Of a stretch of 64,000 nt of DNA, positions 13,484-48,822 are shown one piece after another (the stretch's first letter is position 1; the number at the start of each line of letters is the position of its first letter). Location: the IMG/VR virus record IMGVR_UViG_3300044846_005433, positions 3,143-67,142 of that record. One strand, written 5' to 3'. Both the position numbers and the translations under genes were made by a program. This stretch comes from a virus. Below the pieces are notes generated by a model. That model had not been told where the DNA came from and made no database searches. It saw only the letters and a list, made by a program, of their open reading frames with translations.

Positions 13484-15885
<2,402 letters not shown>

Positions 15886-29003: not shown

Positions 29004-29299
29004 AGCCGTTATACGAAAGAATCCTAGTAAAACCAAGAAAAAAAGAGACCCAAACCAAACAGGGTATCTTGATTCCTGAAAAAGCCGTTAAGAAACCAAA
29101 TATTGGAATCGTTGTTGCCTGTGGCGACGGAAGTACAAATAACCCAATGCTAGTAAAACCTGGAGACATTATTCTCCACAATCGTTTTGCTGGATCTGAT
29201 ATCTTCTACCAAGGAGAAAAACACCATGTTATCCTAGCAAATGAGGTAATTGCTATTTTGGACAATGAAGATGAAGTTAGTTTAGACGAATTCGAATAA
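29000..29299 (+). CDS. groES: Co-chaperonin GroES
   Basis: MKPLYERILVKP...GILIPEKA...GIVVACGDG...VKPGD...EVIAIL. Confidence 0.93.
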   Translation: MKPLYERILVKPRKKETQTKQGILIPEKAVKKPNIGIVVACGDGSTNNPMLVKPGDIILHNRFAGSDIFYQGEKHHVILANEVIAILDNEDEVSLDEFE

Positions 29300-33173: not shown

Positions 33174-33641
33174 ATGGCCAATACTGACAACCAATGTTCA
33201 GATCTTAAGATAGAAGATCTTTATTCCCAAAGCAAAGACACACTAGGAGACATTCTTGCTCTCCAAAAGGACACCCAAAAGAACGTTTACGGCTGGAATT
33301 TCGAAAATATGACTCTTCGAGAAGTAATGAATTTCTGGCACGCTAATACCCATGCCATGATTGATGAGATCCATGAAGCAACTGATGCTCTAGGCGGAAT
33401 CAAAGATGGCAGCGGAAATGCTGTTTGGAAGTACTGGAAGAAAGATTTTGCAAAATACAGCTTTACTAAGTTCTCAGATCTTTCTGAAGCAGATCAACTC
33501 GAATGCAAATTTGAAATTATTGATATGCTCCATTTCTTTATGAATTATGCGATTTCAGTCGGCATGACTCCTCAGGAGATGTATAATATGTACATGAGTA
33601 AAAACCAAGAAAATCGTGATCGTCAAGCTCGCGGTTATTAA
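33174..33641 (+). CDS. T4 gp56-like dCTP/dUTP pyrophosphatase
   Basis: AVWKYWK, DQLECKFEIIDMLHFFMN and KNQENRDRQARGY closely parallel T4 gp56 as recalled. Confidence 0.88.
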   Translation: MANTDNQCSDLKIEDLYSQSKDTLGDILALQKDTQKNVYGWNFENMTLREVMNFWHANTHAMIDEIHEATDALGGIKDGSGNAVWKYWKKDFAKYSFTKFSDLSEADQLECKFEIIDMLHFFMNYAISVGMTPQEMYNMYMSKNQENRDRQARGY

Positions 33642-33656
33642 AATAACAAAAATAGC

Positions 33657-33908
33657 ATGGAATCAATCATCGGTGGCGGTGACGCCCCTAATCCGCAAGG
33701 AGGCCAACAAAAATTAAACATCAACTTAGCAGATGCTCCATATATTGAATGCGAGAGCTGTAACGGGACTATTTTCGAAGAGAAAATGATGATTAAAAAA
33801 GTATCCAAATTTATGACAGGTGGTGCGCAAGATTCAATTGTGCCTATCCCAGTAGTAATTTGTGCAAAATGCGGACATATTAACGAACTATTTAAACCAA
33901 AAGTATGA
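33657..33908 (+). CDS. Zinc-ribbon protein
   Basis: CESC...CAKCGH. Confidence 0.7.
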   Translation: MESIIGGGDAPNPQGGQQKLNINLADAPYIECESCNGTIFEEKMMIKKVSKFMTGGAQDSIVPIPVVICAKCGHINELFKPKV

Positions 33909-35329
33909 TAATTGGAGCTGAAGTATTAAACGATAACACATTAACTATTTCTTATTATAATGCAGCTGGCAGAATAGCTTTTATTAAAAAGCGACTTGTT
34001 GACCATGAACTTTATAATTGGGTAGAATCTTCTACTCCAACTGCAACCAAGAACTGGGATGGCAAATACATCAAGAAGAGTAAAACTGAAGGTCGATATA
34101 TTAATCAGTTTAGAATCCAAGAGTTAATTCAAGAAAAGCTTACCAGAGAAGAACTTGAAGCAATTTACAGTTTCGATAATCTTCCAAAGAAAACTTATCT
34201 CGATATTGAGATCAAGTTGATTGATGACTCATTTCCAGATCCAGAACGAGCCAGAATGCCAGTTGGCCTAATTTCTTTTTGTAACGAAGACAATGTAACC
34301 TACATTCTCTCTATTTTACACGATGACGGCAAGCCAGAAGGACTTTCTCCAGAAGATATTGTTCGCATGGAAAAAGAAGTTAATGAATACTTCAGAAAGA
34401 CAGTTCCCTTAAATCCAAAAGATGCGTGGTTATTTGAACAAGAGTTTAAAATACGATATAAGTTTTTTGCGACAGAAACTGAATTGCTAGATTTCTATTT
34501 TCAAAATCTAGTTCCAAAGTTTTCATTTGTTACTGGATGGAACGTAACCGACTTTGACTGGAAGTATTTAATGAATCGTGCTAAAAACATGAAAGTCGAT
34601 TCTACTGTAAATCTTCCGTCTCGTACTCTAATTTCTAAAAATAGAATCCCAGCTCACCTTGGAGTTCTTGATTATATGCAGGTTTTTGAAAAGCTTAAAC
34701 CATTTAAAGTTGTAGAAAACTACAAATTAGATTATATTGCAGGTCTTGTGCTAGGTGTAGCTAAATTAAAACACGATTATCCATCTTTTCTTGCGTTTCA
34801 AAAAGATACTTATCTCTTTACCTTATATAACGTAATTGACGTTATTCTTGTTAAATTGATTGAAGATAAGCTTTCTTTACTCGATGTTGCCTATTCAATT
34901 GCAAATGTGGCTCAAGTAGACGTAAACAAAGTATTTAGTCCAGTGTATATTGCTGAGATCCTAATGTGCCGTGAGTTCTTAAACAAGAACTTAAAAATGA
35001 TGAAACTTCCTTGGGGAGAGTCAAAAGATAACGATGGCACATACGAAGGAGCATACGTTAAGAAACCAAATCCTGGTCACTATAACTATATTGCATGTTA
35101 TGACTTTTCATCCATGTATCCAAATATTCAAATCCAATTTAACATTTCACCAGATACTTATTTAGGTAAGAAAGGTAGTGTAAAAACCAGAGGTACTGAA
35201 ATCCATACGAAAAACGATACTCTTTTTTCAAGTGAAAACGATTCAGTTGCCCGTACAATTTTAACTCGTCTTTATGATGAACGTATTAAAACTCAAGGCG
35301 AGATTAAACAATTAAAAAATTCAAAATAA
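33905..35329 (+). CDS. Family B DNA polymerase, N-terminal subunit of a split enzyme (exonuclease plus motif A)
   Basis: YLDIE, TGWNVTDFDW, YNVIDV, YEGAYV and YDFSSMYP present; ORF ends before motifs B and C. Confidence 0.88.
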   Translation: MIIGAEVLNDNTLTISYYNAAGRIAFIKKRLVDHELYNWVESSTPTATKNWDGKYIKKSKTEGRYINQFRIQELIQEKLTREELEAIYSFDNLPKKTYLDIEIKLIDDSFPDPERARMPVGLISFCNEDNVTYILSILHDDGKPEGLSPEDIVRMEKEVNEYFRKTVPLNPKDAWLFEQEFKIRYKFFATETELLDFYFQNLVPKFSFVTGWNVTDFDWKYLMNRAKNMKVDSTVNLPSRTLISKNRIPAHLGVLDYMQVFEKLKPFKVVENYKLDYIAGLVLGVAKLKHDYPSFLAFQKDTYLFTLYNVIDVILVKLIEDKLSLLDVAYSIANVAQVDVNKVFSPVYIAEILMCREFLNKNLKMMKLPWGESKDNDGTYEGAYVKKPNPGHYNYIACYDFSSMYPNIQIQFNISPDTYLGKKGSVKTRGTEIHTKNDTLFSSENDSVARTILTRLYDERIKTQGEIKQLKNSK

Positions 35330-35330
35330 G

Positions 35331-35636
35331 ATGGCAAAACCAATATTTATTGTAGGATTTCCAGCAGCAGCAGATGCTCAGGCAATTCATCAAGTATATT
35401 CTGGCTTGGATGCAAAGCTCGGAGATGAATATCATGTTCTTACTTATCGTGCACAAAATATTAATAACGTTAAATTTGAAGTATTAAATGCAATCAATGC
35501 AACTGATATTGAGATATCTGAACTTATTGCTAAGACTAGAGAAGATATTGATATTATCTTAAAAGAAAAAATGCTTAGCGAGCTCACCGATCTTGCTAAC
35601 GACCTAAATAAAAATAATCCAGAAGAAAATGTCTAG
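35331..35636 (+). CDS. Hypothetical protein
   Basis: 101-aa ORF. Confidence 0.65.
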   Translation: MAKPIFIVGFPAAADAQAIHQVYSGLDAKLGDEYHVLTYRAQNINNVKFEVLNAINATDIEISELIAKTREDIDIILKEKMLSELTDLANDLNKNNPEENV

Positions 35637-35910
35637 TAAATTCATCAGTTGGCTCGAAGGTTACCTCGATGCCAGTAAAAACAAAGTGACTCCAAATCAA
35701 GTAAAGGAGATTCGTAAAAAAATTGCTGAATATAGAGTCCAACGAGAAAGAGAACTTATTCCGCTTTGGGATGATTCCTATAGTGAAATTCCTCTAAATT
35801 CATTTAACTCGTTAAATAAATCCGCTGCACATGAAGAATTTCTTAACGAGATTAGCAAAAACAAAAATGCTTCCACAATGGAAGAATTGGTTCTCGAAGA
35901 CAAAAAATAA
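35629..35910 (+). CDS. Hypothetical protein
   Basis: 93 aa; FISWLEGYLD...QVKEIRKKI pattern. Confidence 0.65.
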   Translation: MSSKFISWLEGYLDASKNKVTPNQVKEIRKKIAEYRVQRERELIPLWDDSYSEIPLNSFNSLNKSAAHEEFLNEISKNKNASTMEELVLEDKK

Positions 35911-35917
35911 AGAAAAA

Positions 35918-36574
35918 ATGGATACTGATAAACTAATTTCTCTAAAGGAGAATTTTACTGGCCAACGATTTCAGTGGGTAAAAACGGACCAGTCCGCATT
36001 ACTTGGAAAAGTAGTAAAATGCAGAGACGTTGAGCCTTTAAGTAATGGCCGATTTTTAATCGTGTTCGATGATGGCTCAAAAATCGACAGTAGCAAATTA
36101 AATTCAAACTTAATGATGTTACACGGAGATGATAAGCCATTAAGCCGTGAGGAAGCAATGGCAATCAATGGACCAATTCGTCCACTTGCTGATGTTAAAC
36201 GGACTCCTCCAGTAGTGCCTCCTCAAGTCAATGTTCCAGCCAATCCTGCAAATCCGATGCAGCCTGTTCAGACTGGTGCACAAGTTCCTCCGCCTATACC
36301 GAAACCGAACATGTTTGCAATGTTTAACTCAGAAGAGTCTCAAATTTCAATTAACTTGACGGTTAAATTACCAGATCGTAAGCTTCTTAAAATGATGTAC
36401 AATGGGGCTGAAAACAAGGACAAGTTTTTATCTGAACTTGCAGAATACTTGCATGGAATGATAAATAAACAAGTAGTACAGGACTCTATGAAATCAATTT
36501 TGGCACCAGTTGTGCCAGCAAAGAAAGAGGCTAAACCTACTGTAAATTTAACTGAGGTAAATGAATCCCGATAA
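35918..36574 (+). CDS. Hypothetical protein with Pro-rich linker
   Basis: Likely ATG at 35918 (MDTDKLISLKE); PPVVPPQVNVPANP linker. Confidence 0.65.
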   Translation: MDTDKLISLKENFTGQRFQWVKTDQSALLGKVVKCRDVEPLSNGRFLIVFDDGSKIDSSKLNSNLMMLHGDDKPLSREEAMAINGPIRPLADVKRTPPVVPPQVNVPANPANPMQPVQTGAQVPPPIPKPNMFAMFNSEESQISINLTVKLPDRKLLKMMYNGAENKDKFLSELAEYLHGMINKQVVQDSMKSILAPVVPAKKEAKPTVNLTEVNESR

Positions 36575-37124
36575 CAAACATTTCGACAAAAAGGAAGAAT
36601 ACAATGATGGTAAATACTCAATGTATTCTTTTTCTGGAAATAATGGAAAATTTAGAAGACTTGCTTGCTCTGAAGAGTCTATTTGCATTTTGCCGTTTGA
36701 TTTAAACGAACGCGGCCAAATCAAAAATATTTACTTAGCAAAATACATGGATCATTTACTCGGAGGAGTTGGATTTACCTGTATTACTGATACTTTTAAT
36801 AAAGATCAATTCGACTCATATTATAATGCAGTTGAATCGTGTCTTGCAGATGAAATGGGACTAAACGATATACATGTAAACGATACTTACTTATTAGGTA
36901 CTGTAAGACATGGTGTACCGTTTAGCAAAGAATATAAGTGTTATGGTGTTAATTTGACTAATCACATGGAAGATCCTTCTGGATATACTCCAATTGGCCT
37001 TAACCCAAACCAAAATATTCAATCCATCGAAAAGGTCAGATTTACTAGACTTTTAAATGGGGATATCCAAGATTCTCTTGCGTTATCTTGTTCCCTTCTT
37101 CTCATTTCTTATTTTTCAGATTAA
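36561..37124 (+). CDS. Nudix-fold protein with degenerate Nudix box
   Basis: SICILPF...IYLAK...AVESCLADEMGL...YLLG spacing resembles ADP-ribose pyrophosphatase-like Nudix proteins. Confidence 0.45.
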   Translation: MNPDNKHFDKKEEYNDGKYSMYSFSGNNGKFRRLACSEESICILPFDLNERGQIKNIYLAKYMDHLLGGVGFTCITDTFNKDQFDSYYNAVESCLADEMGLNDIHVNDTYLLGTVRHGVPFSKEYKCYGVNLTNHMEDPSGYTPIGLNPNQNIQSIEKVRFTRLLNGDIQDSLALSCSLLLISYFSD

Positions 37125-37150
37125 GAACTTTTTGTCGGCATTAAGTAAAA
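37125..37150 (+). promoter_or_regulatory. Early/middle-type promoter motif (GAAC-N16-GTAAAA)
   Basis: Recurring motif upstream of uvsX. Confidence 0.55.
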
Positions 37151-37171
37151 GATTATTAAAATAATTACGAT

Positions 37172-38368
37172 ATGTCACATACAAAAGACGTACTTAACGC
37201 ATTCAACAAATTTAACGATTTGCTTGAGAAAAAAGTTAAGTCTAAAATTACCCTAATGGGATTCTCAGATATTGATGAATACATTCCAACTGGTAATTAT
37301 CTCCTAAATGCACAAATGTCCGGCTCAGTATTCGGCGGCTATCCAAATACACGAAGTATTGGGATTGCTGGTGATTCTGGTGCAGGTAAAACCTTCTTAT
37401 GTTTAAACGCAGTTCGCGAATTACAAAAGAAAGGTTATTTAGTTTTTTATATTGATACTGAAGGTGCAATCGACCGCTCAGATTATGTAAAATTCGGAGT
37501 CGATCTAGATGGATTAAAGTATTTGCGTATGGGCTTAATCAGCGACGTTAAATTCTTTATTAACGACTTTATTGAAACAATGAGAGAAAATCCAGGATTG
37601 AAGCCAGCAATCTTCGTCGACTCAGTAGGTATGTTAGATACTGATAAGAGTAAACGAGATATGGATGCTGGTAAAAATGCTTCAGATATGGGTCTTCGTT
37701 CGAAAGAAATGAGATCACTTTTCAAATCATTTACTCTTGAACTTTCAAATCTTAAAGTTCCTTTTATCTTTACTAACCATACGTATGCTTCAATGGATCA
37801 ATACACTCCAAAGGGTATGTCGGGCGGAGGAGGTCCGGAATTCTCTGCATCAATTATCTTGATGTTGAGTAAAGGAACTCTTCGTGATGAAGCAAAAACC
37901 ACAACAGGAATTATCGTTCGCTCTAAAACTAAGAAAAATCGTTTAGCTAAACCGATCGATATTGAATTCCATATCTCTTTCCATAAGGGTATGAATCCAT
38001 TTGTAGGACTAGAGCAATTTGTTAGTTGGGAAAATTGTGGAGTCGGTCGTGGTAAAAAATTAACTGAAAAGGAATTTTCTAAACTTAAACCTGCAGAGCA
38101 AGAAGATTGCTCTAAATTTGAAGTATCTGGAGAAACTTTCTATTTTATGCCAGGTAAACTTGCAAAAAATTATATTAGTCGTCACAATGGAGATGAAATT
38201 CCAGTAAAAGAATTTTTCTCAGCTAGATTATTCACAGAAGATGTTCTAAAAGAATTGGACGAGAAAATCATTAAACCAACATTCAAGTTTCCAGAAACAC
38301 AAGACGGAATTGATATCCTTGAAAACGATGAACTTGAAAACCTAAATAATGATGAAGATTCGCTCTGA
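37172..38368 (+). CDS. uvsX: RecA-like recombinase (UvsX)
   Basis: Walker A GDSGAGKT, YIDTEGA, FVDSVGML, TNHTY and SGGGG motifs. Confidence 0.92.
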   Translation: MSHTKDVLNAFNKFNDLLEKKVKSKITLMGFSDIDEYIPTGNYLLNAQMSGSVFGGYPNTRSIGIAGDSGAGKTFLCLNAVRELQKKGYLVFYIDTEGAIDRSDYVKFGVDLDGLKYLRMGLISDVKFFINDFIETMRENPGLKPAIFVDSVGMLDTDKSKRDMDAGKNASDMGLRSKEMRSLFKSFTLELSNLKVPFIFTNHTYASMDQYTPKGMSGGGGPEFSASIILMLSKGTLRDEAKTTTGIIVRSKTKKNRLAKPIDIEFHISFHKGMNPFVGLEQFVSWENCGVGRGKKLTEKEFSKLKPAEQEDCSKFEVSGETFYFMPGKLAKNYISRHNGDEIPVKEFFSARLFTEDVLKELDEKIIKPTFKFPETQDGIDILENDELENLNNDEDSL

Positions 38369-38678
38369 TTTACCAATTAAATATTACTTAAATGTTTATA
38401 ACGAAGAGAATTTGCAAGATGAATTGACAATTCTTTTTGACATAATACAGTACTTAACTAAAGTTATTCAAGCGAAGGACAAGGATCTTTCGCTTGAGAA
38501 CTTTAAGTTCACATCCAAATCTATGAAATATATTTTCGGAGATAAGTTAAAAGATGAAACTTTTAAGCAAAATCTAGTTAAAAGATTAAAGAATCTGATT
38601 GCTACCGAAAATGTTTCAGTTACTGGAGAGACCATGAAGATTACAGAAAAAGGATTAACGAACTTTTATAAAATATAG
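38349..38678 (+). CDS. Hypothetical protein
   Basis: 109-aa ORF between uvsX and the helicase gene. Confidence 0.6.
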   Translation: MMKIRSDLPIKYYLNVYNEENLQDELTILFDIIQYLTKVIQAKDKDLSLENFKFTSKSMKYIFGDKLKDETFKQNLVKRLKNLIATENVSVTGETMKITEKGLTNFYKI

Positions 38679-40157
38679 ATGATAGACTTTACCGAAAATA
38701 TAGACTCGCTTGAAAAGATGGTGTGGAACTTTATTTTACATACCGATAATGATAATAATGAGCTTAAACCGAAAAGCCATGATTCATTAAGACGAGAAGA
38801 GTTGATAACTATGGTAAAGCCTTCATATTTCAATGAAGAAAATAGACAAGAATCCTTTAAGATCGCGTTAAAATTTTTTAGAGAATACGAAAAAATACCA
38901 AATCACAAGGAACTAAGAAGTTACTTGGAATTAACAAATGCAACAATAGATGATGAAGAATTTGATGACTTATATGCGTTCAATTTACGAGAGTATAATT
39001 ATGACTATCTATACAAATACGTACGTTCTTTTATTTTGCTTAGAAATCTTAACCTTACTGTTTTTGATCTACTCACATATCTAAAAACTACTTCGATCGA
39101 TCCTGAAAATATCGATAAGATCTCAGAAAAAGTAAGAAATGATATTAGCAGTAAACTCTCAGTTAATTTCTCTAGCGGAGACACTGGACTAAACTTCTTT
39201 AATCCAGAAGCACATATACAATTAGCTAAAAACGGAAGCCCTACCGGTTTTCCATTTTTAGATAAGTGTTTAGGCGGAGGATGGAACCCAAAATCTCTTG
39301 TAGTTTTTCAAGGTCGACCTAAGGTTGGTAAATCTATGGTTCTTGGAAATATTGCTGCTCGTTCGTTCCTAATCGGAAACGTAACTGGATTAGTAACGGT
39401 TGAATTACCAGAACGTCAATACATGAAACGTATTGGTTCAAATATTTTAAGTATTCCATCTGATGTATACTCTGGAATTACCGATGCAAAACACAGCCAA
39501 TTAATTGGTGATAAAATTGCCGAATTAAAATCTTCTGGTAAATCTTGTGGAGAGTTAATAATTAAAGACTTTCCAACAGGTAGTGCAACTGCAATCGATA
39601 TTGAAAATTACTTTTTACGTCTTGAAAGCAAGATGAACAAGCGATTTAAAGTTATTGTTGTCGATTACTTAAATCTATTACGCCCAATTAAAGATCAAAA
39701 CGGTCTTTATGAAAAAATCAAGTGTATTTCTGAGGAATTACGTGGTGTTGCAATGAGAAATGAATGGTGTATTATTAGCGCTACTCAAATCAAACGAGAA
39801 GACATTGATAATTTTGACCTAGGTATGGATTCGGTTGCTGAATCCTTTGGTCTAATTCACACAGTTGATTCATTATTTGGATTGATGCGCAGTCCACTTG
39901 AAAGTAGAATGAAAATAAAAGCGATTGCAAATCGCGACAATGGATATGAAGAAAGTTATAAGTTCTACACAATGCATAAAGAATACTTTAGGCTAAGCGA
40001 AGAAGTAGGAACAAATAGCGAGTTTTATAGTGATGATGAAGAAGCTAGTAAATTAGCTGATTCTCTTCGTGATGAATATTCAAACTTAGAAGATTCAACC
40101 ACTCCTTCTTCTCCAAAAACTGATGAAGATTATGATGACCTCTTCAATCAGATATAA
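38679..40157 (+). CDS. Replicative DnaB-family helicase (gp41-like)
   Basis: PTGFPFLD, GRPKVGKS, VVDYLNLL, SATQ and AESFG motifs. Confidence 0.93.
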   Translation: MIDFTENIDSLEKMVWNFILHTDNDNNELKPKSHDSLRREELITMVKPSYFNEENRQESFKIALKFFREYEKIPNHKELRSYLELTNATIDDEEFDDLYAFNLREYNYDYLYKYVRSFILLRNLNLTVFDLLTYLKTTSIDPENIDKISEKVRNDISSKLSVNFSSGDTGLNFFNPEAHIQLAKNGSPTGFPFLDKCLGGGWNPKSLVVFQGRPKVGKSMVLGNIAARSFLIGNVTGLVTVELPERQYMKRIGSNILSIPSDVYSGITDAKHSQLIGDKIAELKSSGKSCGELIIKDFPTGSATAIDIENYFLRLESKMNKRFKVIVVDYLNLLRPIKDQNGLYEKIKCISEELRGVAMRNEWCIISATQIKREDIDNFDLGMDSVAESFGLIHTVDSLFGLMRSPLESRMKIKAIANRDNGYEESYKFYTMHKEYFRLSEEVGTNSEFYSDDEEASKLADSLRDEYSNLEDSTTPSSPKTDEDYDDLFNQI

Positions 40158-40172
40158 AATAATTAATATCTA

Positions 40173-40748
40173 ATGAGACCAAATGATGACGAACTTGAAA
40201 ACATAAACGAGATTGAAGAAGAGGATGATGAAAACGTTCCCGCGATAGTCAGGGAAGACAAAATTTTTAATAATCGTTATAATACTGGCGATGGTCTGCC
40301 AGATTCAGACGAATATTCTTTATCGAGAGGAATCTCGGTTTCACGAGACTACTCAGATTCCTACTTACGAGATTTATACGAATATGAAAGTGAACTTGAG
40401 ACTAAATTTATTTTAGACGCAATCTTTTCTTTCTTACAAAACGATCCTGAAATTTCAGAAATAATAACCCGATCCTCAACTGATCCGTTTGTGACTAAAT
40501 CTAAATTTTCAAAGGAAGACGTTAATTTCATATTTAACAAGATTAACACAACGCTTGAGTTAAAATCTAATGTAATCATGTTTTATAGCCCAATTTATAT
40601 TTTAGAAGTAATATCTTCTATTTCATCAATTGAGTACAAGAAGTTATTTGATATGTTAGAAACAGAGATTCAAGAACTCTTATTAACCGAATTAAATAAA
40701 AAGTATCAATTCCTTGATGGAAAGATGCACAAAAAAAAGATACACTAA
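40173..40748 (+). CDS. Hypothetical protein with acidic N-terminus
   Basis: 191-aa ORF within the replication operon. Confidence 0.65.
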   Translation: MRPNDDELENINEIEEEDDENVPAIVREDKIFNNRYNTGDGLPDSDEYSLSRGISVSRDYSDSYLRDLYEYESELETKFILDAIFSFLQNDPEISEIITRSSTDPFVTKSKFSKEDVNFIFNKINTTLELKSNVIMFYSPIYILEVISSISSIEYKKLFDMLETEIQELLLTELNKKYQFLDGKMHKKKIH

Positions 40749-40975
40749 TGGCTTGGATTAAACTTACACACTCAACTGGAGTCGATTATCTAAATATCGA
40801 TCAGGTTTACAAAATAGTGCAGACTGCAGCGACTGATCTTACTTTTTATGATGCAAATTCTATTTTGCCGACAACTTACGTATTTTCATCAGCTGCTGAT
40901 CTTGCTGAAAATCTTGCAAAATTTGAGAGTATAACAAAAATTATTGACATCGATAAGCTAGCTCCACAAGGATGA
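40748..40975 (+). CDS. Hypothetical protein
   Basis: 75 aa; overlaps both neighbours at start/stop codons. Confidence 0.6.
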   Translation: MAWIKLTHSTGVDYLNIDQVYKIVQTAATDLTFYDANSILPTTYVFSSAADLAENLAKFESITKIIDIDKLAPQG

Positions 40976-42084
40976 AATTAAAAGATATTAGAAAAGTATT
41001 TGTACTTGGCGACCTTCACCTTGGTGTAAGAAATAACTCAATGGAATGGTCAGACATACAATCTGATTTTCTTCTTAATTTTTTCTTACAAAAGGTAGAC
41101 GAAGAAGGATTTGATCCAGAAAGAGATATTCTTGTTCAAGTTGGTGATTGGAACCATATTCGAGAATCAACAAATGTTCGTATTCAAAATATTTCTTTAC
41201 AGATAGCTAAGGTCTTGTCTGAAAAATTTAAACGCGGCATCTATCTTATTCTTGGAAACCATGACGTTTATTATAAAGATCGAACTGATACTCATTCTCT
41301 AAAAGGATATGATCTTATGTTCAAGAATTTCAATATCTTTGAAAAGCCAGAGATCTTGGAACTAAACTCACATAAGTTTTTAATGTTACCTTGGATAGAA
41401 TCTGTACCTGAATTAAAAGAAACTGTAAAGTTATATGATTCCGCAAAATATATCTTTTGTCATGCTGATTTCAAAGGATTTAGTCTAACTAAAGCAACTA
41501 AACTTGAGCATGGACTAGAATATGATGATGTAAAGTCATTTAAACGAGTTTATTCAGGTCATATTCATATTCGTCAAGACAAAAACAATGTCCTATATGT
41601 TGGAACTCCATACGAAATGGACAGGGGAGATCGCGGAAACGCAAAAGGTTTTTATGTGCTTGATGTAAGTGGAGCGGATATAACTGAGAAATTTGTAGAA
41701 AATACCATTTCTCCAAAGCATATTAAACATGACATAATTGAGCTTCTTAACCTTAATACTGATGAGTTAAAAAAACTATTCTTCAATAATTTTGTGGATG
41801 TTACGATTGAATCTACGCTATCCGCTCGATTTCCAATAACCAAGTTTACTGAATTAGTTAAAGACTTTGGATATCGTCGACTTGAATTCTTTTCATATTC
41901 AGTCGAGCAGCTTAAAACAAAAAGTGAAGTTGAAATTGATTCAAACTATGAGTATAATATTTTTAGTATTCTTGAAGAAAAAATTAAAGAGTCGACCCAT
42001 ACTCCAGATCTTTCTAAACAAGTGATTGATCGATTTAAAGAGATATACGACGCATTACGAAATAATAAAAGTTACGAGCAGTGA
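40972..42084 (+). CDS. Recombination endonuclease subunit (gp47/Mre11/SbcD-like)
   Basis: GDLHLG, GDW, GNHD and SGHIH metallophosphoesterase motifs. Confidence 0.92.
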   Translation: MKLKDIRKVFVLGDLHLGVRNNSMEWSDIQSDFLLNFFLQKVDEEGFDPERDILVQVGDWNHIRESTNVRIQNISLQIAKVLSEKFKRGIYLILGNHDVYYKDRTDTHSLKGYDLMFKNFNIFEKPEILELNSHKFLMLPWIESVPELKETVKLYDSAKYIFCHADFKGFSLTKATKLEHGLEYDDVKSFKRVYSGHIHIRQDKNNVLYVGTPYEMDRGDRGNAKGFYVLDVSGADITEKFVENTISPKHIKHDIIELLNLNTDELKKLFFNNFVDVTIESTLSARFPITKFTELVKDFGYRRLEFFSYSVEQLKTKSEVEIDSNYEYNIFSILEEKIKESTHTPDLSKQVIDRFKEIYDALRNNKSYEQ

Positions 42085-43754
42085 GATTACTAGAATTTTC
42101 ATATAAGAACATACTTTCGTATGGCAACTTATTACAGACTTTTAAATTTAAAGATGAAGCACAGCTTATCCTAGTCGAAGGCGAAAACGGCGCAGGAAAA
42201 TCTTCAATAAAAGAAGCATTAACTGTTTCAATATATGGAAGATCTGCAATTCGTAAGATGAAAGATATTCCAAACTGGATTAATAAGAATGCATACACAA
42301 ATGTCAAGTTTGTTACCAATTCTGGAGAATTTATTGAAATTGATCGAGGCATTGAACCTAATTTTAGCGATATTAAAATAAACAATGCCCAATTCAATCT
42401 TCCTGACAAGAGAAAAGTAGACGAGTTTATTGAGGAAGAACTTTCAAAAATTCCATTTTCAGTTTTTTGTAATACTATTAGTCTTTCGTTTGATGATTTT
42501 AAGTCCTTTGTTAATTTAACTCAATCTGATAAAAGAAAAATAGTCGACCGTATTTTTGGAATCGATATTTTAACTGATATGCGAGCAGTTGTTAAAGAAG
42601 ATCTTAAACAAAACAAAAAAGATCTTGATATACTTGATTCTCAAATTGAAAGAAATACTACAACTCTTAATACTTCACTCGAACAACTTGCTAGTCTTCG
42701 AGAAAAACTAAGTAAAAAGAAAGAAACCCAATCTGAAGATATTTCAAGTAAGATTGAGACCAAGAAGAAAACAGTAGAGGAAGTCAAACAGCAGTACGCT
42801 GATTTAAAAAAAGATATTGAGTCTTTCCAAGCCACTCTTAATACTATTCGCGATGAAATGAGTACTTCTCGAGCGACTATTCAAGATTTAGCAAATAAAC
42901 TTGCTCTATATCAAAAGAATAGGTGTCCGCACTGCTTAAACGATCTTACTTCAGAATCTTCTGTAAAAACAAAAGATGCAATTGAAGCTAAGAAAAAAGT
43001 AGTTGAAGACAAATTGCCTGCACTTAAAACATCTTTTACTGAAATTACTAATAAAATCACGGCATTAACTGAGGATCAAAATACTTCTAAATCTGAGTAT
43101 TACGAATTGACTGCCGAGATTAAATTGCTTGAAGCTGAACTGCAAAAAACAGTAGAGGAACTTGGAGTGGATGAAACTGAATCTATCCAAACAATTATTG
43201 ACTCGATCCAAACTGAATTACAAACAGATGGTGATTCTGCGCTTGAGAAAAGGGACCAAGCAAATTTATTTAATATTTTAGATGATTTGCTTTCTGATTC
43301 TGGAATCAAGAAAACTTTAATCGATAAAATAATTCCAACCCTAAATAATAGGATCAAAATTATTTCAGAGAGACTTGAATTTAAGTTTCAATTTGAGTTT
43401 GATAGTGATTTTAATCCAGTTATTTCTTACTTAGGGATGGATATCTCACCAGAGAGTCTATCTAGCGGTCAACGTAAGAAGATGAATATTATTGTGCTCC
43501 TAGCATTTATCGAAATTATTAAGATGAAGCATAGCCAACTGAACGTGCTTTTCCTAGATGAAATATTTAGTTCTCTCGATAAGAATAACGTTTATCGTGC
43601 GATCGAAATTCTTAAGGAGTACGCTGAAAAATATAAAATGACAATCTTTGTTGTGTCTCACGAATCCTTACCTGAAGAATTCTTTAATTCTAAGATTTTT
43701 GTAACTACACAAGACCACTTCTCAGAAATGAAAATAACCCAAATTGGAGCATAA
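42081..43754 (+). CDS. Recombination ATPase subunit (gp46/Rad50/SbcC-like)
   Basis: GENGAGKS, CPHC zinc hook, LSSGQ signature, FLDE and VVSH motifs. Confidence 0.93.
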   Translation: MRLLEFSYKNILSYGNLLQTFKFKDEAQLILVEGENGAGKSSIKEALTVSIYGRSAIRKMKDIPNWINKNAYTNVKFVTNSGEFIEIDRGIEPNFSDIKINNAQFNLPDKRKVDEFIEEELSKIPFSVFCNTISLSFDDFKSFVNLTQSDKRKIVDRIFGIDILTDMRAVVKEDLKQNKKDLDILDSQIERNTTTLNTSLEQLASLREKLSKKKETQSEDISSKIETKKKTVEEVKQQYADLKKDIESFQATLNTIRDEMSTSRATIQDLANKLALYQKNRCPHCLNDLTSESSVKTKDAIEAKKKVVEDKLPALKTSFTEITNKITALTEDQNTSKSEYYELTAEIKLLEAELQKTVEELGVDETESIQTIIDSIQTELQTDGDSALEKRDQANLFNILDDLLSDSGIKKTLIDKIIPTLNNRIKIISERLEFKFQFEFDSDFNPVISYLGMDISPESLSSGQRKKMNIIVLLAFIEIIKMKHSQLNVLFLDEIFSSLDKNNVYRAIEILKEYAEKYKMTIFVVSHESLPEEFFNSKIFVTTQDHFSEMKITQIGA

Positions 43755-44851
43755 TGTACTCACTATTAATTTACGATCCAACTGATCAAATAAAAACCAA
43801 ACCTGCACTTACAATCAAGATTGAGATTGCAAAAGATCGTCGCGATCTACTTAATCTTCTTTGTAAAAAAGAATGGGATACCATTATTACTTTTGGAGAA
43901 AAGGAATGGTCTCTACTTGAAAAACAACCCTATCATATTCGACATAAGTGGATACACTTAGATACCTTTCCAGGTGATCAGGATCTACTTGCTCAGGTAC
44001 AACAAGTATATTATAATTACACTAAACTTGGTAGCTCAGATGTTCCCCTAGTTTCGATTTATACTCCTACCTATAATTCTAGAGAATTTATTCTGCAGAC
44101 TGCCTCTTCTGTACAGATGCAAATTTGGCAAAACTGGGAATGGATTATTGTTGACGATGGTTCTACTGATGATACTGTTGCTCTACTTGAAATGTTACAG
44201 GATCCTCGTATAAAAATATTTAAGTTTCCAAATAGCGGTCGTATTGGATTTAATAAGGGTGCTGCTACTAGTTTAGCCAAAGGCGACTATCTAGTTGAGT
44301 TAGACCACGATGATTTTCTTACAGTCAATGCACTAGATAAAGTAGTTAAGACTTTTACTGAAAATCCAGATGCAGGAATGGTCTATTCAAACTGTGCAGA
44401 GTGGTGGCAAGGCACAGATCAGAGTAATACTTATAATGCCACTTATTGGCGATATCGCGATGTTGAATGGAACGGAATCACCCTAAAGGAGGGTTTATGT
44501 CATGATGTAATGGGCAAGTGTGAACTTGAAAATGGATCAGACTGGGTAATCAATAATATGCCAATTTGTCCAAACCACTTGCGTGCATTTAGAGCAAGTA
44601 CTCTTCGTGAAATCGGAGGCTACCGTAACCTAGTATGGGCAGATGATTATGACGTAATGCTACGTATGTTTATCCACAGTAGAATACATCATATTGATGA
44701 GATGTTATATGTACAAAGATTTGGTACAAATACTTGGACAAAAAATGCCAGTCTCTTGTGGCCATGTTTTGCTAAAATTAAAGAAAATTATCGGGATCAA
44801 CTTACAGCGCGCTTTGCTGAACTTGAAAATATTATCCAATTACCACTCTAG
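43754..44851 (+). CDS. GT2-family glycosyltransferase with N-terminal extension
   Basis: VSIYTPTYN, IIVDDGSTD, ELDHDD (DxD) and ADDYD motifs. Confidence 0.9.
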   Translation: MYSLLIYDPTDQIKTKPALTIKIEIAKDRRDLLNLLCKKEWDTIITFGEKEWSLLEKQPYHIRHKWIHLDTFPGDQDLLAQVQQVYYNYTKLGSSDVPLVSIYTPTYNSREFILQTASSVQMQIWQNWEWIIVDDGSTDDTVALLEMLQDPRIKIFKFPNSGRIGFNKGAATSLAKGDYLVELDHDDFLTVNALDKVVKTFTENPDAGMVYSNCAEWWQGTDQSNTYNATYWRYRDVEWNGITLKEGLCHDVMGKCELENGSDWVINNMPICPNHLRAFRASTLREIGGYRNLVWADDYDVMLRMFIHSRIHHIDEMLYVQRFGTNTWTKNASLLWPCFAKIKENYRDQLTARFAELENIIQLPL

Positions 44852-44871
44852 TTTGTATTTGATAATATTTA

Positions 44872-44894
44872 TTTTTTAGGTAAGCCTAAAAAAA
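44872..44894. terminator. Hairpin between convergent genes
   Basis: TTTTTTAGG-TAAG-CCTAAAAAA. Confidence 0.5.
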
Positions 44895-44911
44895 GTTTAG
44901 GTGTGTCTAAA

Positions 44912-46741
44912 TTATGGTTTTAATTTTAAGAAAACACCCCATGCACTATCACCACTATTTGCTAGTGTTATTGAAACTACCAAATATTTATTTGTTGTAA
45001 AATCTGGTGTTATTGTAGATGGTGCTGTAGTAGATGAAACCCCAACATCTATCAATGAGGTTGAACTTGTTGGCAGTATTCTAGTTCCCGCACCTGTACC
45101 ATCTTTCTTTTTAATATTGATGTATCTTTGGACTGTTGCATTTCTTGTAGTAGCACCTAATGCAGTACTTTGAAAAACTAATATAGGACTGCCAGATAAA
45201 TTAGGAGTAGAATTTATATACATTTTTAATGTTATAGCTCCACCACTTCCTGTTTTTTCTATTTTAAAAGATGAATCTAATGAAAGATTATCCGTGATAA
45301 GCGAACTATTTATTAGTTCAGCATAAGTAACCGATTCAGCTGTAGTTCCTGTTATTACCGTTCCATCTGCCCCTTGATTTATTATAGGTAATAAAAAAGT
45401 TAAACCTAAATTTGCTCTAGCAACTGAAACACTTGTTAAATCACTTAGATTATTAGTAGGGTTTAGAGGGATATATCCTAATGCATTTTGTTTTCCATTA
45501 AATGTACTCCAATCTGTAGAACTTAATACACCTCTATTAGTAGCAGATGCAGTAGGTAAATTTAATGTATGAGTAGTTCCAACAGAACTAACTGCAAAGT
45601 CAGTTCCACTTGTACCTGTAACTATTGTTTGTGATGCACCCGTAAGAGAATTAATAGCAGTTATACCTGTTCCTGCCATAATTCCTGACTGTTGGGTAAC
45701 TGTCATAATAACTGATGCAGCAGAAGGTGGAGGAGAACCTGCTGCATAGAACTGCATAGTTACATTAGTGTGGTTGTTTGTACTCCAAACTAATTCATAA
45801 TATTGTCCTGCTACAACACTTAGTACATAATTCCAACTTGTTATTACATGTCCTTCATTTCCTACACCTGCTGCTCTTCTTTTTGGAATTTGAACAAATC
45901 CTGATGACCCTGTTACATCTGTTCCATTTAGCCTCAACCAAATAGTTACGTTATGTTCTGCATTATCAATATTTTGAAACTGAGAACTAAACTGTATGTT
46001 ATATATACCTGTATTTGCAAATGTTATTCTTGTAGGATCACCACTTCCATTATTAACAATTGATATACCATTTGGAGTAATATCAGCTATTTCAAATCTC
46101 ATAGGGTATCCCACATTACTAGCAGCAGCAGTTTGTGTTGTATCTGTCTGCCAAGCTCCATAATATCCTAATGGTGTAGGAGTACTCTGTGGACCTTGTG
46201 GACCTTGGTCTCCCTGTGGACCTTGAGTACCCTGGTCTCCTTGTGGACCTTGAGTACCTTGGTCTCCCTGTGGACCTTGTGCTCCTTGGTCTCCTTGTGG
46301 ACCTTGAGTACCCTGGTCTCCTTGTGGACCTTGAGTACCTTGGTCTCCCTGTGGACCTTGAGTACCTTGGTCTCCCTGTGGACCTTGCGGGCCTTGATTA
46401 CCAGCTGGTCCTTGTGGACCTTGAGTACCTTGGTCTCCCTGTGGACCTTGAGTACCTTGGTCTCCCTGTGGACCTTGAGTACCCTGTGGACCTTGCGGGC
46501 CCTGGTTACCAGCTGGTCCTTGCGGACCTTGATTACCCTGAGTTCCCTGTGGACCCTGCGGTCCTTGTGGCCCTCCTCCACCTCCTCCACCTTCAAGAAC
46601 AATAATGTTTCCAAAATGATCCATTTTAGACAAATAACCTAAATTATTCGAATCGAACCCAATTAGGAATGTCCCAACTGGTATTTTATCGTAGTCGATG
46701 GTAGAAAAATCAATTAAAGGGTATATTGAGGTAGTTGCCAC
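44912..46741 (-). CDS. Collagen-like fibre protein with C1q/BclA-like domain
   Basis: About 43 Gly-X-Y triplets followed by [19 protein letters not shown] and [12 protein letters not shown]; likely GTG start at 46741, downstream of the late motif at 46764-46771. Confidence 0.8.
46187..46573. repeat. 9/27-bp coding tandem repeat (collagen GPQ-GDQ-GTQ)
   Basis: Repeated unit GTGGACCTTGAGTACCTTGGTCTCCCT and variants. Confidence 0.95.
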
Positions 46742-46780
46742 TAAAGTCAGTAAGTGTTTATTATATTTATTCAAAAATAA

Positions 46781-46808
46781 AAACTTTCGACACAGTCTTG
46801 TGTATAAA
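46781..46808 (+). promoter_or_regulatory. Early/middle-type promoter motif (AAAC-N17-GTATAA)
   Basis: Recurring motif upstream of the thymidylate-synthase-family gene. Confidence 0.55.
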
Positions 46809-46823
46809 AATAGAAAGCAAAAT

Positions 46824-47687
46824 ATGAAAGTATACCAAGCTGAAGATTTTTCAACTCTATATCAGTCAAGTTTAGCTGACTTGATGCGAAATCCTGAATA
46901 TGAAACTAAGCCTAGGGATTTAAAGATCAGAGAAAACACGAATGTTGCTCTAGTTTTAGAAAATCCTCTTTCTTGTCTCTATTCTAATGATTCTAGATCG
47001 TCTCAGCGAAAATACATTGCCGCAGAATTGATATGGTATTTTATGGGAAGAAATGATGTTGAATATATTAAAAAATACGCAAAGTTTTGGGAATCAATCC
47101 AAAACGAGGACGGTACTGTTAATTCGTCATATGGCAATTTGCTTTTTACCAATAAAAACCGATTTGGTCATACTCAATATGAATGGGCATATAATTCCCT
47201 AGTTAAAGATAAAGATTCTCGTCAAGCGATTCTTCATTTTAATTTACCAGAGCATCAGTATACTACAAATAAAGATTTTGTATGCACGATGTATGGAATC
47301 TTCCAAATCCGAGATAATAAACTTAACTTCACAGTTTCAATGCGAAGCAACGATGTTATTTGGGGTCTGCCTACTGATATCGCATTTTTTGCAATCTTAC
47401 AGAGTCAATTGCATACTCACTTAAAATCTACATATCCTGCTCTTGAACTTGGTTCATATACGCATATCGCAAATTCATTCCATATCTACGAACATCATTT
47501 TGATGCAGTAGAAAAAATGTTAGCTTGTGATTTTACAAGAGAAGAAATTCCAAGCATAGGCAATAATTTAATTACTACAAGCGGCACACCAACTTCAGAA
47601 CTTAATGTGTTATTCCATAACACTCAAGACGATCATGAATTATTCGCAGATCCTTTATTTAAGTGGATTTGTTCAAATATAAAATAA
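46824..47687 (+). CDS. Thymidylate-synthase-family enzyme, dCMP hydroxymethylase (T4 gp42)-like
   Basis: KDFVCT catalytic Cys; [13 protein letters not shown] has Asp at the position of ThyA Asn177; SFHIYEHHF; likely ATG at 46824. Confidence 0.8.
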
Positions 47688-47688
47688 G

Positions 47689-47883
47689 ATGATAAAATAC
47701 ATTAAACCTTTCACCACTAGATTAATCACAGTTTTATTAACGGCATTAATCTGTTTTTTAGCATTTAAGATTTGTACTCTTGAAGAAGTATTCGATGTGC
47801 AGATTACTTATGTGCAATGGCTAGGAATTTCTACAATTTCTGTGCTCCTATTTACTCAACCAGTTAGCGATAAAAAAGAATGA
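47689..47883 (+). CDS. Small two-TM membrane protein
   Basis: 64 aa with two hydrophobic helices. Confidence 0.6.
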   Translation: MIKYIKPFTTRLITVLLTALICFLAFKICTLEEVFDVQITYVQWLGISTISVLLFTQPVSDKKE

Positions 47884-48299
47884 CTCAAAAAGATTTAAAA
47901 TATCACAAGACTTATTTAAAGATGGCAATGGAGTGGTCAACACTCTCTTGTTGTAGTCGCAAAAAAGTTGGTGCAATTATCGTAAAAGACGGAATGATTA
48001 TCTCAGACGGATTTAACGGTACACCAAAAGGTTTTCCAAACGACTGTGAAGACGCAAATGGCAATACGTATTGGTATGTTTTACATGCTGAAGCTAATGC
48101 TATCTTAAAGGTTGCAAAATCTTCTCAAAGTACAGACGGAGCAACCTTGTACGTAACTTACTCTCCATGTAAAGACTGTTCTAAACTTATAGTTCAGTCT
48201 GGAATCAAGAGAGTCATTTACGGCGAAGAATATCGAGATGTTGCCGGACTAGTTATCTTACGAGAAGCTGGAGTCGATATTTTAAAATTAGACATATAA
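47880..48299 (+). CDS. dCMP deaminase
   Basis: KVGAIIV, GFNGTP, HAEANA and SPCKDC motifs. Confidence 0.93.
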   Translation: MTQKDLKYHKTYLKMAMEWSTLSCCSRKKVGAIIVKDGMIISDGFNGTPKGFPNDCEDANGNTYWYVLHAEANAILKVAKSSQSTDGATLYVTYSPCKDCSKLIVQSGIKRVIYGEEYRDVAGLVILREAGVDILKLDI

Positions 48300-48300
48300 T

Positions 48301-48699
48301 ATGGAAGACCGCCAAGTTTCAATAGTTTTCGTTAAAGAATACAAGAATTTTATTAGTGCTTTTGAAAAAAAGAACAAGGAAGATTATGTATTGAACGTTA
48401 GTAAAATTATCAAAGACAAATTCAATACTAAGTTTATTGTGCCTAATAAAGTACAGTCTTTTCTTCTCAATTATGAGATTAAGAAATTATTAGATAAGGC
48501 AATCAATATTAAAAACAAAAAGTATCGTCGAGTAGTTTATCTAAATTCTAACTTGTCTGCGTCAATTATCCTAAATACAATTGATTTTGTAGAAGAAGAA
48601 TATTCAGAACTTGCCTTTTCTTACTTTTTAATTGAGTCTAAATCTCTAGACGAACCTCAAATTAATATAATTGACAAATTAACTAAAATAAAAATATAA
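48301..48699 (+). CDS. Hypothetical protein
   Basis: 132-aa ORF. Confidence 0.6.
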   Translation: MEDRQVSIVFVKEYKNFISAFEKKNKEDYVLNVSKIIKDKFNTKFIVPNKVQSFLLNYEIKKLLDKAINIKNKKYRRVVYLNSNLSASIILNTIDFVEEEYSELAFSYFLIESKSLDEPQINIIDKLTKIKI

Positions 48700-48815
48700 G
48701 CATAATTAAAATCTTTTCTGCTTGGGTAAAATCCCTAAATGAGTCTTCAAAAAGCACCTACGATTACGGATGTGCAATGGTGCATTACAATATGCCTCAA
48801 AATCAACTAAATTAA
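48696..48815 (+). pseudogene. Remnant 5' end of a gene with capsid-targeting-like N-terminus and Acb1/gp57B-like start
   Basis: Frame reads (I)SIIKIFSAWVKSLNESSKSTYDYGCAMVHYNMPQNQLN*; ATA sits where an ATG would be expected and the frame is truncated. Confidence 0.45.
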
Positions 48816-48822
48816 AAAGTTT

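Follow-up and report, generated by a model that had tools for sequence, protein, structure and literature searches.

A predicted T4-type 5-hydroxymethylcytosine precursor pathway and a collagen-linked GT2 glycosyltransferase in an uncultured T4-like phage

Genes at the locus

We analysed a 64,000-nucleotide stretch of viral DNA (hereafter the window), which covers bases 3143-67142 of a single viral contig of 67,142 bases (IMG/VR record IMGVR_UViG_3300044846_005433). The genes in question lie between positions 33174 and 48699 and encode a thymidylate-synthase homologue resembling gp42, the deoxycytidine monophosphate (dCMP) hydroxymethylase of phage T4, together with a gp56-like pyrophosphatase, a dCMP deaminase, a GT2 glycosyltransferase and a collagen-like tail-fibre protein. 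An earlier note on this DNA had read the gp42-like, gp56-like, GT2 and deaminase genes as one probable pathway leading to a 5-substituted, possibly glycosylated cytosine. The genes were assigned as follows (aa, amino acids; ORF, open reading frame; E, expectation value).

33174-33641, plus strand: gp56-like dCTPase/dUTPase (all-alpha nucleoside triphosphate pyrophosphohydrolase), 155 aa; homology to T4 gp56, phrog_173
40972-43754, plus strand: gp47 (40972-42084) and gp46 (42081-43754), SbcCD-like recombination nuclease; phrog_100, E 4.5e-52, and phrog_77, E 1.3e-81
43754-44851, plus strand: soluble GT2 (GT-A) glycosyltransferase, 365 aa; PF00535, E 3.4e-25; 95-residue N-terminal alpha/beta domain
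44912-46774, minus strand: collagen-like tail-fibre protein, 620 aa; PF01391, E 1.4e-17; tail-fibre PHROGs, e.g. phrog_5073, E 4.3e-55
46824-47687, plus strand: gp42-type dCMP hydroxymethylase (predicted 5-hydroxymethyl-dCMP synthase), 287 aa, from Met43 of ORF 46698-47687; PF00303
47689-47883, plus strand: small membrane-like protein, 64 aa; hydrophobic segment, 19-residue Kyte-Doolittle mean 2.36
47880-48299, plus strand: dCMP deaminase, 139 aa; PF00383, E 1.4e-25; phrog_174, E 1.3e-54; HAE and PCKDC zinc motifs
48301-48699, plus strand: o132, a conserved 132-aa protein directly downstream of the deaminase; matched in 79/83 related loci

The ATG of the GT2 gene overlaps the TAA stop of gp46 by one base (ATAATG), which bears out the translational coupling that had been claimed for this pair. 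The collagen-like gene is convergent with the GT2 gene. All elements named in the earlier note were found where it had placed them.

Active site of the thymidylate-synthase homologue

Relatives of the gp42-like gene were collected from a viral contig collection, in which at least 278 related stretches were found and 80 were kept. The 83 loci fetched were searched by tblastn with the window proteins as queries. The first 42 codons of ORF 46698-47687 overlap the 5' end of the minus-strand collagen-like gene, and all 80 kept relatives aligned from Met43 (46824). Because of this shared starting point, Met43 is likely to be the true start of the gene, which would give a protein of 287 aa. One promoter-like site was located upstream of it.

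46735-46764, plus strand: TTGCCA, 18 nt, TATTAT; consensus scan, 10/12 matches

This is a weak candidate, as the numbers of sites found by the promoter and terminator scans of the region were at the level of shuffled sequence.

The ORF matched the Pfam family Thymidylat_synt (PF00303) with an E of 1.2e-21 and contained the DFVCT motif. The sequence search of the PDB placed two hydroxymethylases at the top, the CMP hydroxymethylase MilA (E 3e-21) and T4 dCMP hydroxymethylase (E 2.7e-19), both of which outranked every thymidylate synthase. The identity to T4 gp42 was 28%. The protein was aligned by MAFFT with E. coli ThyA, T4 gp42 and RB69 gp48, whose sequences were taken from annotated records, and the active-site residues were located as follows.

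47274-47285, plus strand: Asp-Phe-Val-Cys, with Asp at 47274-47276 and the catalytic Cys at 47283-47285 (TGC), equal to T4 Asp145...Cys148
47343-47378, plus strand: Ser167 equivalent, Asp169 equivalent (47352-47354) and Asp at the Asn177 position (47376-47378), from the three-enzyme alignment

The catalytic Cys aligned with ThyA Cys146 and T4 gp42 Cys148. Three residues before it stands an Asp (the Cys-3 Asp) where E. coli ThyA has Leu143; MAFFT set a gap directly before this Asp, and its equivalence rests on the fixed distance to the Cys. The GAT codon at 47376-47378 aligned with ThyA Asn177 and T4 gp42 Asp179, so that the DFVCT motif and the Asp in place of Asn177, both pointed out in the earlier note, were found in the sequence as well as in the alignment. 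Around this position the motif reads RSCD...N in ThyA, RSND...D in T4 gp42 and RSQN...D in RB69 gp48, and the window enzyme has RSND with Asp177. Its Ser-x-Tyr motif reads NSSYG, the equivalents of Ser167 and Arg126 lie within RSND and DSRQ, and the equivalents of Glu58, Trp80, Tyr94, Arg166, His207 and Tyr209 were also conserved. The Cys-3 Asp, RSND and Asp177 occurred together in 81/81 related loci (58 distinct sequences), and this set of motifs is therefore not a matter of chance.

Published work gives a meaning to each of these residues. Replacement of Asn177 by Asp is reported to confer cytosine specificity (PMC13326640; PMC5175136). An acidic residue (Asp or Glu) at Cys-3, combined with Ser-x-Tyr, is described as the signature of hydroxymethylation, and T4 gp42 D145N as inactive (PMC6400193); the Cys-3 Asp is given the role of activating water (PMC6400193; PMC13326640). 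According to PMC13326640, every tested 5-hydroxy-dCMP synthase has Asn for Asp169 (the D169N rule). The pattern for deoxyribose is Ser167 with Arg126, for which MilA has Ala and Lys (PMC5175136). From these residues we infer that the homologue probably makes 5-hydroxymethyl-dCMP (5hm-dCMP), as T4 gp42 does. The earlier reading of a dCMP-directed enzyme was thus strengthened, since all the published gp42-type marks are present and three of them occur throughout the related loci.

Other known activities of this fold agree less well with these residues. Canonical ThyA is defined by Asn177, Leu143 and a closing C-terminus, and the window enzyme has Asp at both of the first two positions. A 5-hydroxy-dCMP synthase of the RB69 gp48 type would carry Asn169; Asp169 is kept in the window and in 81/81 relatives. 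A CMP-specific enzyme like MilA was rejected by the Ser/Arg pattern.

In comparison with T4 gp42 (PDB 1B5E, 6A9B), the window enzyme shares the fold, the Cys, the Cys-3 Asp, Ser-x-Tyr, RSND, the Asp179 equivalent and the His/Tyr contacts to ribose, and its gene likewise lies in a T4-like replication region with a gp56 homologue. It differs in a C-terminal extension of about 60 residues, in the Gln at the Arg127 equivalent and in gene context, as it lies beside gp46 (in relatives) and a dCMP deaminase gene, not beside beta-glucosyltransferase, with no gp1-type kinase detected. The 5-hydroxy-dCMP synthases RB69 gp48 and DLP3 gp80 described in PMC13326640 share the Asp at the 177 position and an acidic Cys-3 residue, but have Asn where the window enzyme has Asp169. 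MilA (PDB 5JNH, 5B6D), which headed the PDB matches by sequence, owes its cytosine specificity to the same Asp; for ribose it has Ala176 and Lys133, whereas the window enzyme has Ser and Arg, as in deoxy-specific enzymes. The closest homologues from isolated phages were those of Xanthomonas phage Xp15 (34%) and of Acinetobacter and Ralstonia phages, all of which are to our knowledge uncharacterised. As this case shows, metagenomic thymidylate-synthase paralogues that form hydroxymethyl, hydroxy or methyl products can be told apart by published active-site rules.

The phage and its nearest relative

The window contains many T4-like genes, namely those for the N-terminal half of PolB, UvsX, a gp41-like helicase, gp47/gp46, topoisomerase II subunits, a Dda-like helicase, ribonucleotide reductase, and the tail sheath and tube. 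Two viral records, G007 (reversed) and G006, were collinear with it in blocks of 66-79% nucleotide identity. They abut at the collagen-like gene, come to about 240 kb jointly and represent about 94% of a genome by completeness estimates; this pair is the nearest relative. Other relatives reached 207 kb at an estimated completeness of 81%, and the estimate for the window's own contig was 26%. On the basis of these lengths, the phage is an uncultured, T4-like phage with a genome of roughly 250 kb, of which the window would be about a quarter. Its GC content was 34%. The nucleotide search of positions 43000-49000 against isolated phages gave only collagen-repeat matches and one uncultured huge phage.

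Cytosine replacement and thymidylate supply

In T4, the 5-hydroxymethylcytosine (hmC) pathway is made up of gp56, gp42, gp1 and glucosyltransferases. The gp56-like dCTPase named in the earlier note proved to be a genuine, full-length homologue of T4 gp56 (155 aa against 171 aa), with 30% identity over 149 residues up to the common C-terminal GY (E 1e-23). It matched phrog_173 at E 8.9e-21, and its match to PF08761 (dUTPase_2) was weak, as it is for T4 gp56 itself. Copies 85% identical to it were present in the relatives G001 and G002, and the PDB sequence search with it gave nothing useful. The dCMP deaminase, which had also been recognised before, was supported by its PF00383 match and by both zinc motifs, and it lies 3' of the gp42-like gene in 80/83 loci. 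The gene order conserved in relatives was uvsX-41-47-46, followed by gp42-like, deaminase and o132. By tblastn, the gp42-like protein was matched in 81 of the 83 loci, the deaminase in 80, o132 in 79, gp46 in 58, the 64-aa membrane-like protein in 17 and the GT2 in 6. No Pfam or PHROG match and no Walker A motif were found for o132.

A separate Asn-type ThyA or ThyX and a deoxynucleoside monophosphate kinase had been proposed as things to look for, and the first of these searches was successful in part. A canonical ThyA or ThyX was present in 4/10 related records searched for a second thymidylate synthase. Records G001, G003 and G008 gave a second full-length match to the thymidylate-synthase family (275-290 bits), with 45-50% identity to E. 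coli ThyA and the motifs LPPCH, QRSVDT and GLPFNIASY, and G005 contained ThyX. In those lineages, therefore, the Asp-type enzyme is not the dTMP synthase. This resembles T4, in which gp42 exists beside td.

Several results weigh against a gp42-type pathway in the window's own lineage. No second thymidylate synthase and no ThyX were found in the nearest relative (G006 and G007), and neither these enzymes nor a kinase turned up when the part of it that is not collinear with the window was scanned with Pfam (191 ORFs, minimum length 80 aa, three border-spanning ORFs skipped). As the Asp-type enzyme is the sole member of the thymidylate-synthase family there, dTMP would have to come from the host or by an unrecognised route. 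The kinase search was negative: T4 gp1 as a protein query matched 0/5 large relatives, its Pfam family DNMK (PF21448) was found in 0/5 relatives and 0/1 own contig, all of these records being incomplete, and Thymidylate_kin gave one sub-threshold match only in 5 records. In addition, ThyA Arg127 is replaced by Gln in the gp42-like clade. No nucleotide-kinase-like ORF stood out among the window ORFs. Because all the searched records are incomplete, the missing gp1-type kinase is not a demonstrated absence. According to PMC13326640, a thymidylate-synthase homologue alone yields some modified base in E. coli DNA, and a dedicated kinase may for this reason be non-essential.

The same results would fit an enzyme whose product is not 5hm-dCMP. 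It could be a thymidylate synthase, a dCMP methylase (as for the 5-methylcytosine of Xp12 type) or a 5-hydroxy-dCMP synthase, or its product could be deaminated to a 5-substituted dUMP. The constant pairing of the gp42-like gene with dCMP deaminase points in this direction, the residue rules derive from few characterised enzymes, and the closest isolated-phage homologues are not among these as far as we know. However, Asp at the Asn177 position speaks against dUMP as the substrate, the Cys-3 Asp and Ser-x-Tyr favour hydration over hydride transfer, Asp169 is retained where every tested 5-hydroxy-dCMP synthase has Asn, and a canonical ThyA or ThyX exists besides it in some relatives. We regard a different product as distinctly improbable.

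A T4-type hmC precursor pathway is thus likely to be encoded here, though no gp1-type kinase was found, and a 5-substituted cytosine in the phage DNA, most likely hmC, is a reasonable prediction from the gene content. The gp56-like pyrophosphatase would remove dCTP (and dUTP) and yield dCMP. The gp42-type paralogue would then hydroxymethylate dCMP at C5, with methylene-tetrahydrofolate as the donor, the cytosine being chosen by the Asp at the Asn177 position and the water being activated by the Cys-3 Asp and Ser-x-Tyr in place of hydride transfer. Some of the dCMP would be turned by the adjacent deaminase into dUMP, the precursor of dTMP. For this last conversion some relatives have their own ThyA or ThyX, and the window's lineage presumably depends on the enzyme of the host. 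Such a pathway would extend the T4-type combination of gp56 and a gp42-type enzyme to a large, abundant lineage of uncultured phages of about 250 kb.

The junction between gp46 and the gp42-like gene

The gp47/gp46 pair forms the upstream border of a variable site. In 57 loci gp46 and the gp42-like gene were both present, and the junction between them was classified.

No insert, gp46 directly abutting the gp42-like gene: 48/57
Insert without collagen and without glycosyltransferase: 5/57
Insert with collagen and glycosyltransferase: 3/57 (L009, its near-duplicate L063, and L012)
Insert with collagen only: 1/57 (L014)

A transferase was missing from 53/57 complete junctions, and at this site it was found only alongside a collagen-like fibre gene. 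The transferases that accompany collagen were of three or four types. The window's GT2 type was also present in L081, L082 and L083; L012 has a different GT2, likewise coupled to gp46; L009/L063 have a GT2-methyltransferase fusion; and L061 has a 1314-aa GT1/GT9/methyltransferase protein. The window's type was matched in 6/83 loci, of which 3 had come into the set because the GT2 was used as a query. PF00535 was found in 1/5 large relatives and lies far from the gp42-like gene there.

These junction counts, and the differing types of transferase found with collagen, indicate that in this lineage the transferase follows the fibre gene, not the gp42-like gene. The position of the GT2 gene at gp46 is not ancestral in the lineage, and the GT2 and collagen-like genes probably arrived jointly by insertion into the variable site between gp46 and the gp42-like gene. 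The earlier note had compared the position with that of the T4 alpha-glucosyltransferase gene beside gene 47. In T4, a-gt does adjoin 47/47.1, and b-gt adjoins 42, a loosely similar neighbourhood, but the analogy is weak, since T4 a-gt lies beside gene 47, not 46, and the GT2 position is a derived one. Both T4 enzymes are of the GT-B fold and belong to the Pfam families AGT and T4-Gluco-transf, neither of which was found in the window or in the inventory of the nearest relative.

Linkage of the GT2 family to collagen-like genes

The collagen region of the fibre protein (residues 68-196) has 43 G-X-Y triplets, of which 9 have Thr at the X position. An alignment of 26 GT2 homologues served to examine the distribution of the family. 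It brought up at least 572 viral relatives and at least 541 from the genome collection, and the 80 best of either set were retained. The cellular loci had flanks of 8 kb, and a collagen-like ORF was defined by at least 12 consecutive G-X-Y triplets. Within these best-80 sets, a collagen-like ORF was found near the GT2 gene in 43/78 new viral loci, in 32 of them within 3 kb, and in 46/77 cellular loci (L182-L258), in 31 of them within 1 kb. If they were spread uniformly over the flanks, about 1 in 8 of the collagen ORFs would fall within 1 kb, against the 31/46 observed in cellular loci. The record titles of the cellular loci named Bacillota, Actinomycetota, Pseudomonadota, Acidobacteriota and other phyla. 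The convergent order, with GT2 on the plus strand and collagen on the minus strand, recurred in cellular loci and in the viral loci L133, L139, L141 and L162.

A cassette recurred in phages (viral loci L108-L163, e.g. L113:8411-9343), in which a collagen-like gene with a Peptidase_S74 chaperone domain is joined by DUF6445 and a GT2 of about 600 aa. Often the cassette also has a second GT2 and a 2OG-FeII_Oxy_3 protein that matches hydroxylases of PKHD/PiuC type (prolyl-hydroxylase-like). In phages, no neighbour of the GT2 family was as common as DUF6445. Its invariant H-x-D...H...R columns suggest a 2-oxoglutarate/Fe(II) oxygenase; no PDB match was found by sequence or profile, and the Atlas search gave DUF6445 clusters only. 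The cassette of collagen, DUF6445, GT2 and hydroxylase may be a system for hydroxylation and glycosylation of fibres.

A similar pairing has been described in Clostridioides difficile, in which sgtA lies directly upstream of bclA3 and SgtA adds beta-O-GlcNAc to Thr of the collagen repeats (PMC7157674). The likeness to the window is one of gene context, a transferase gene adjoining a collagen-like gene. In the account of PMC7157674 the transferase domain of SgtA is at residues 1-260, whereas the core of the window GT2 follows an N-terminal domain and spans about residues 100-330.

The gp42-like gene was a much rarer neighbour, as it was found within 10 kb in 5/81 GT2 loci. The family also extended to large viral records without a gp42-type enzyme (8/16), including a complete 512-kb phage record with terminal repeats in which no thymidylate-synthase-family gene was found.

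The closest cellular homologues of the GT2 were in Planctomycetota bins (L179-L181). They were 53-56% identical to it and had the same architecture in 370 aa (e.g. L179:8001-9116), and their gene context was HU, MutS2, an unknown protein of 478 aa, GT2, an unknown protein of 493 aa and chorismate synthase. The GC content of these bins (0.60-0.67) was in striking contrast to the 34% of the phage.

The acceptor of the GT2

The AlphaFold2 model of the GT2 (pLDDT 93) showed an ordinary GT-A fold. The nearest solved structures found by Foldseek were K4CP, heparosan synthase, SpsA, RmlT, TarS and TarP; these matches are generic for GT-A and do not tell a DNA acceptor from a protein acceptor. The motifs DDG, DHD and DDYD were invariant in the family. 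The isoelectric point of 5.3 did not discriminate either, those of T4 a-gt and b-gt being 6.1 and 9.1. The PHROG matches were to GtrB-like families and covered residues 100-240 of the core only. GtrB-type enzymes have C-terminal membrane helices. In the window GT2 no membrane segment was found (highest 19-residue hydropathy mean 0.61), and a GtrB-like bactoprenol glucosyltransferase for O-antigen conversion was rejected on this ground.

The linkage data make glycosylation of the collagen-like fibre the favoured role of the GT2, with a chance a little above even. By analogy with SgtA acting on BclA3, the enzyme may add an O-linked sugar to the fibre, plausibly at Thr of the G-T-Q triplets. The joint reading, a T4-type hmC module next to a GT2 that serves the collagen-like fibre and not the DNA, has in our estimate about an even chance. 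What was observed directly is homology, signature residues, synteny and the co-occurrence of genes; the activities of the enzymes, the acceptor of the GT2 and the base present in the DNA are predictions drawn from these. Several points count against it. The collagen region of the fibre contains no Lys, and the window encodes no hydroxylase. The GT2 gene shares its transcription with genes of replication and recombination and lies on the strand opposite to the fibre gene. One junction has collagen with no transferase (L014), a gp42-type enzyme is encoded somewhere in 8/16 of the large viral records that contain the GT2 family, and a collagen-like gene was found within 8 kb of the homologue in 0/3 of the planctomycete loci. 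Moreover, the related loci do not count as independent samples.

Some of these points would suit a GT2 that glycosylates DNA, adding a sugar to 5hmC after replication, so that the genome would contain glycosylated hmC made by a GT-A enzyme. The gene is coupled to gp46 in a replication/recombination operon, one inverted gene away from the gp42-like gene, and TarP, a structural neighbour of GT-A DNA glycosyltransferases, was among the Foldseek matches. The co-occurrence with a gp42-type enzyme in half of the large records fits as well, and neither the window nor the Pfam inventory of the nearest relative yielded another candidate (AGT, T4 beta-glucosyltransferase or GT1). Phage enzymes of both GT-A and GT-B folds are reported to glycosylate 5hmC in DNA, and mining of metaviromes often placed GT-A enzymes near thymidylate-synthase homologues and dCMP deaminase (bioRxiv 10.1101/2023.12.21.572611). 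The idea of a GT-A enzyme in the vicinity of a gp42-like gene is thus already described there, which weakens the novelty that had been seen in the fold of the window GT2. The same preprint states that about 65% of its transferase contigs have no nearby base-modification gene and that many such transferases act elsewhere.

On the other side, 48/57 relatives have no transferase at the site and yet retain the gp42-like and deaminase genes, and PF00535 in the one large relative that has it is elsewhere in the genome. Several unrelated types of transferase occupy the site, only together with a collagen-like gene. Homologues adjoin collagen-like genes in bacteria, which are not known to glycosylate their DNA. 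The rarity of gp42-like genes near the family, the 512-kb phage that has no thymidylate-synthase homologue and the generic character of the Foldseek matches also speak against DNA as the acceptor. The window GT2 shares the GT-A fold and the TarP neighbourhood with the phage DNA glycosyltransferases of bioRxiv 10.1101/2023.12.21.572611, and its phage probably makes hmC, but those enzymes are defined there by linkage to a cytosine methyltransferase and a TET-like dioxygenase, whereas the window GT2 is linked to collagen-like genes. Most relatives with a gp42-like gene also do without it. We consider a DNA acceptor unlikely. Of the cytosine-modification pathway in the earlier note, the part concerned with a 5-substituted cytosine (gp42-type enzyme, gp56 and deaminase) stood; the membership of the GT2 did not hold up, as the gene is absent from most relatives and the family is tied to collagen in phages and bacteria.

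A third possibility is that the GT2 acts on another virion protein, on a host envelope glycan (superinfection exclusion) or on a substrate shared with the planctomycete homologues, and that its nearness to collagen reflects merely a shared location in a hypervariable host-recognition region. The collagen-free context of the closest cellular homologues and the PHROG matches to GtrB-like families are consistent with this, and PMC7029224 interprets transferases in the tail-fibre regions of pelagimyophages as enzymes that modify the O-antigen. The nearest relative also has a separate island with 4-5 GT2 genes and genes for nonulosonic-acid synthesis. However, the window GT2 differs from GtrB-type enzymes in its lack of a membrane segment, its PHROG matches are limited to the GT2 core, and the collagen adjacency in cellular loci is far tighter than a uniform spread within the 8 kb flanks would give. 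We rate another acceptor as possible but clearly less probable than the fibre.

If the fibre is the acceptor, the locus would give access to a poorly studied modification of phage virions, glycosylation of collagen-like tail fibres, which could affect host recognition. It also calls for caution, as a glycosyltransferase gene beside a gp42-like gene need not act on DNA. It is rather doubtful that hmC is decorated by GT-A (GT2) enzymes, whether by the gp46-coupled GT2 or by those of the nearest relative's island, to give an undescribed glycosylated cytosine; if true, a GT2 family shared between the decoration of collagen fibres and of DNA would be new.

Other genes of the window and the nearest relative

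The glycan island of the nearest relative spans about 12 kb (L167:2353-14757, in G006, just past the end of the window contig) and lies beside DnaJ and the gp23 capsid gene. It contains a cytidylyltransferase, 4-5 GT2 genes, two DegT aminotransferase fragments, hexapeptide/PglD-like acetyltransferases and NeuB (nonulosonic-acid synthase). The island could serve virion glycosylation or, speculatively, DNA glycosylation. No genes for arabinose or other NDP-sugars were found in the window. The same record encodes a 527-aa protein (L168:14273-15856, minus strand) with a domain of the Mom family (adenine modification in Mu) and DUF7487, and a second DNA modification is therefore possible in the nearest relative.

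The family-B DNA polymerase is split in this lineage. The window ORF at 33905-35329 (474 aa) is the N-terminal half only, with the exonuclease domain and the start of the polymerase domain, and the rest of the polymerase domain in the nearest relative is a separate 480-aa ORF (L168:15927-17369), tens of kilobases away. In Aeromonas phage 44RR2.8t, unlike here, the two halves (43A/43B) are adjacent.

The T4 late-promoter motif TATAAATA occurred once in the window, against 9.07 expected from shuffles. Late transcription thus probably differs from that of T4, and T4-style timing signals are unreadable in the window because TATAAATA is so rare there. Sigma70_r2 gave one weak match in the window (8832-9230), and the nearest relative has several sigma-70-like proteins. 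No tRNA genes were found in the window.

Two DNA repair genes were present in the window, for a Fpg/Nei-type DNA glycosylase (52326-53108) and for a UvdE UV endonuclease (10159-11103); a base-excision enzyme is of note in a phage with a probable modified cytosine. Genes for a GroEL-like (Cpn60, 14245-15885) and a GroES-like protein (Cpn10, 29000-29299) lie 13 kb apart. The window further encodes a 90-aa protein matching the chlamydial histone H1-like Hc1 (26110-26382; PF07432, E 7e-11), a protein of the GMP reductase/IMP dehydrogenase family (60109-61170; PF00478, E 1e-96) and a protein with a cREC_REC cyclic-phosphate processing receiver domain (53576-54001).

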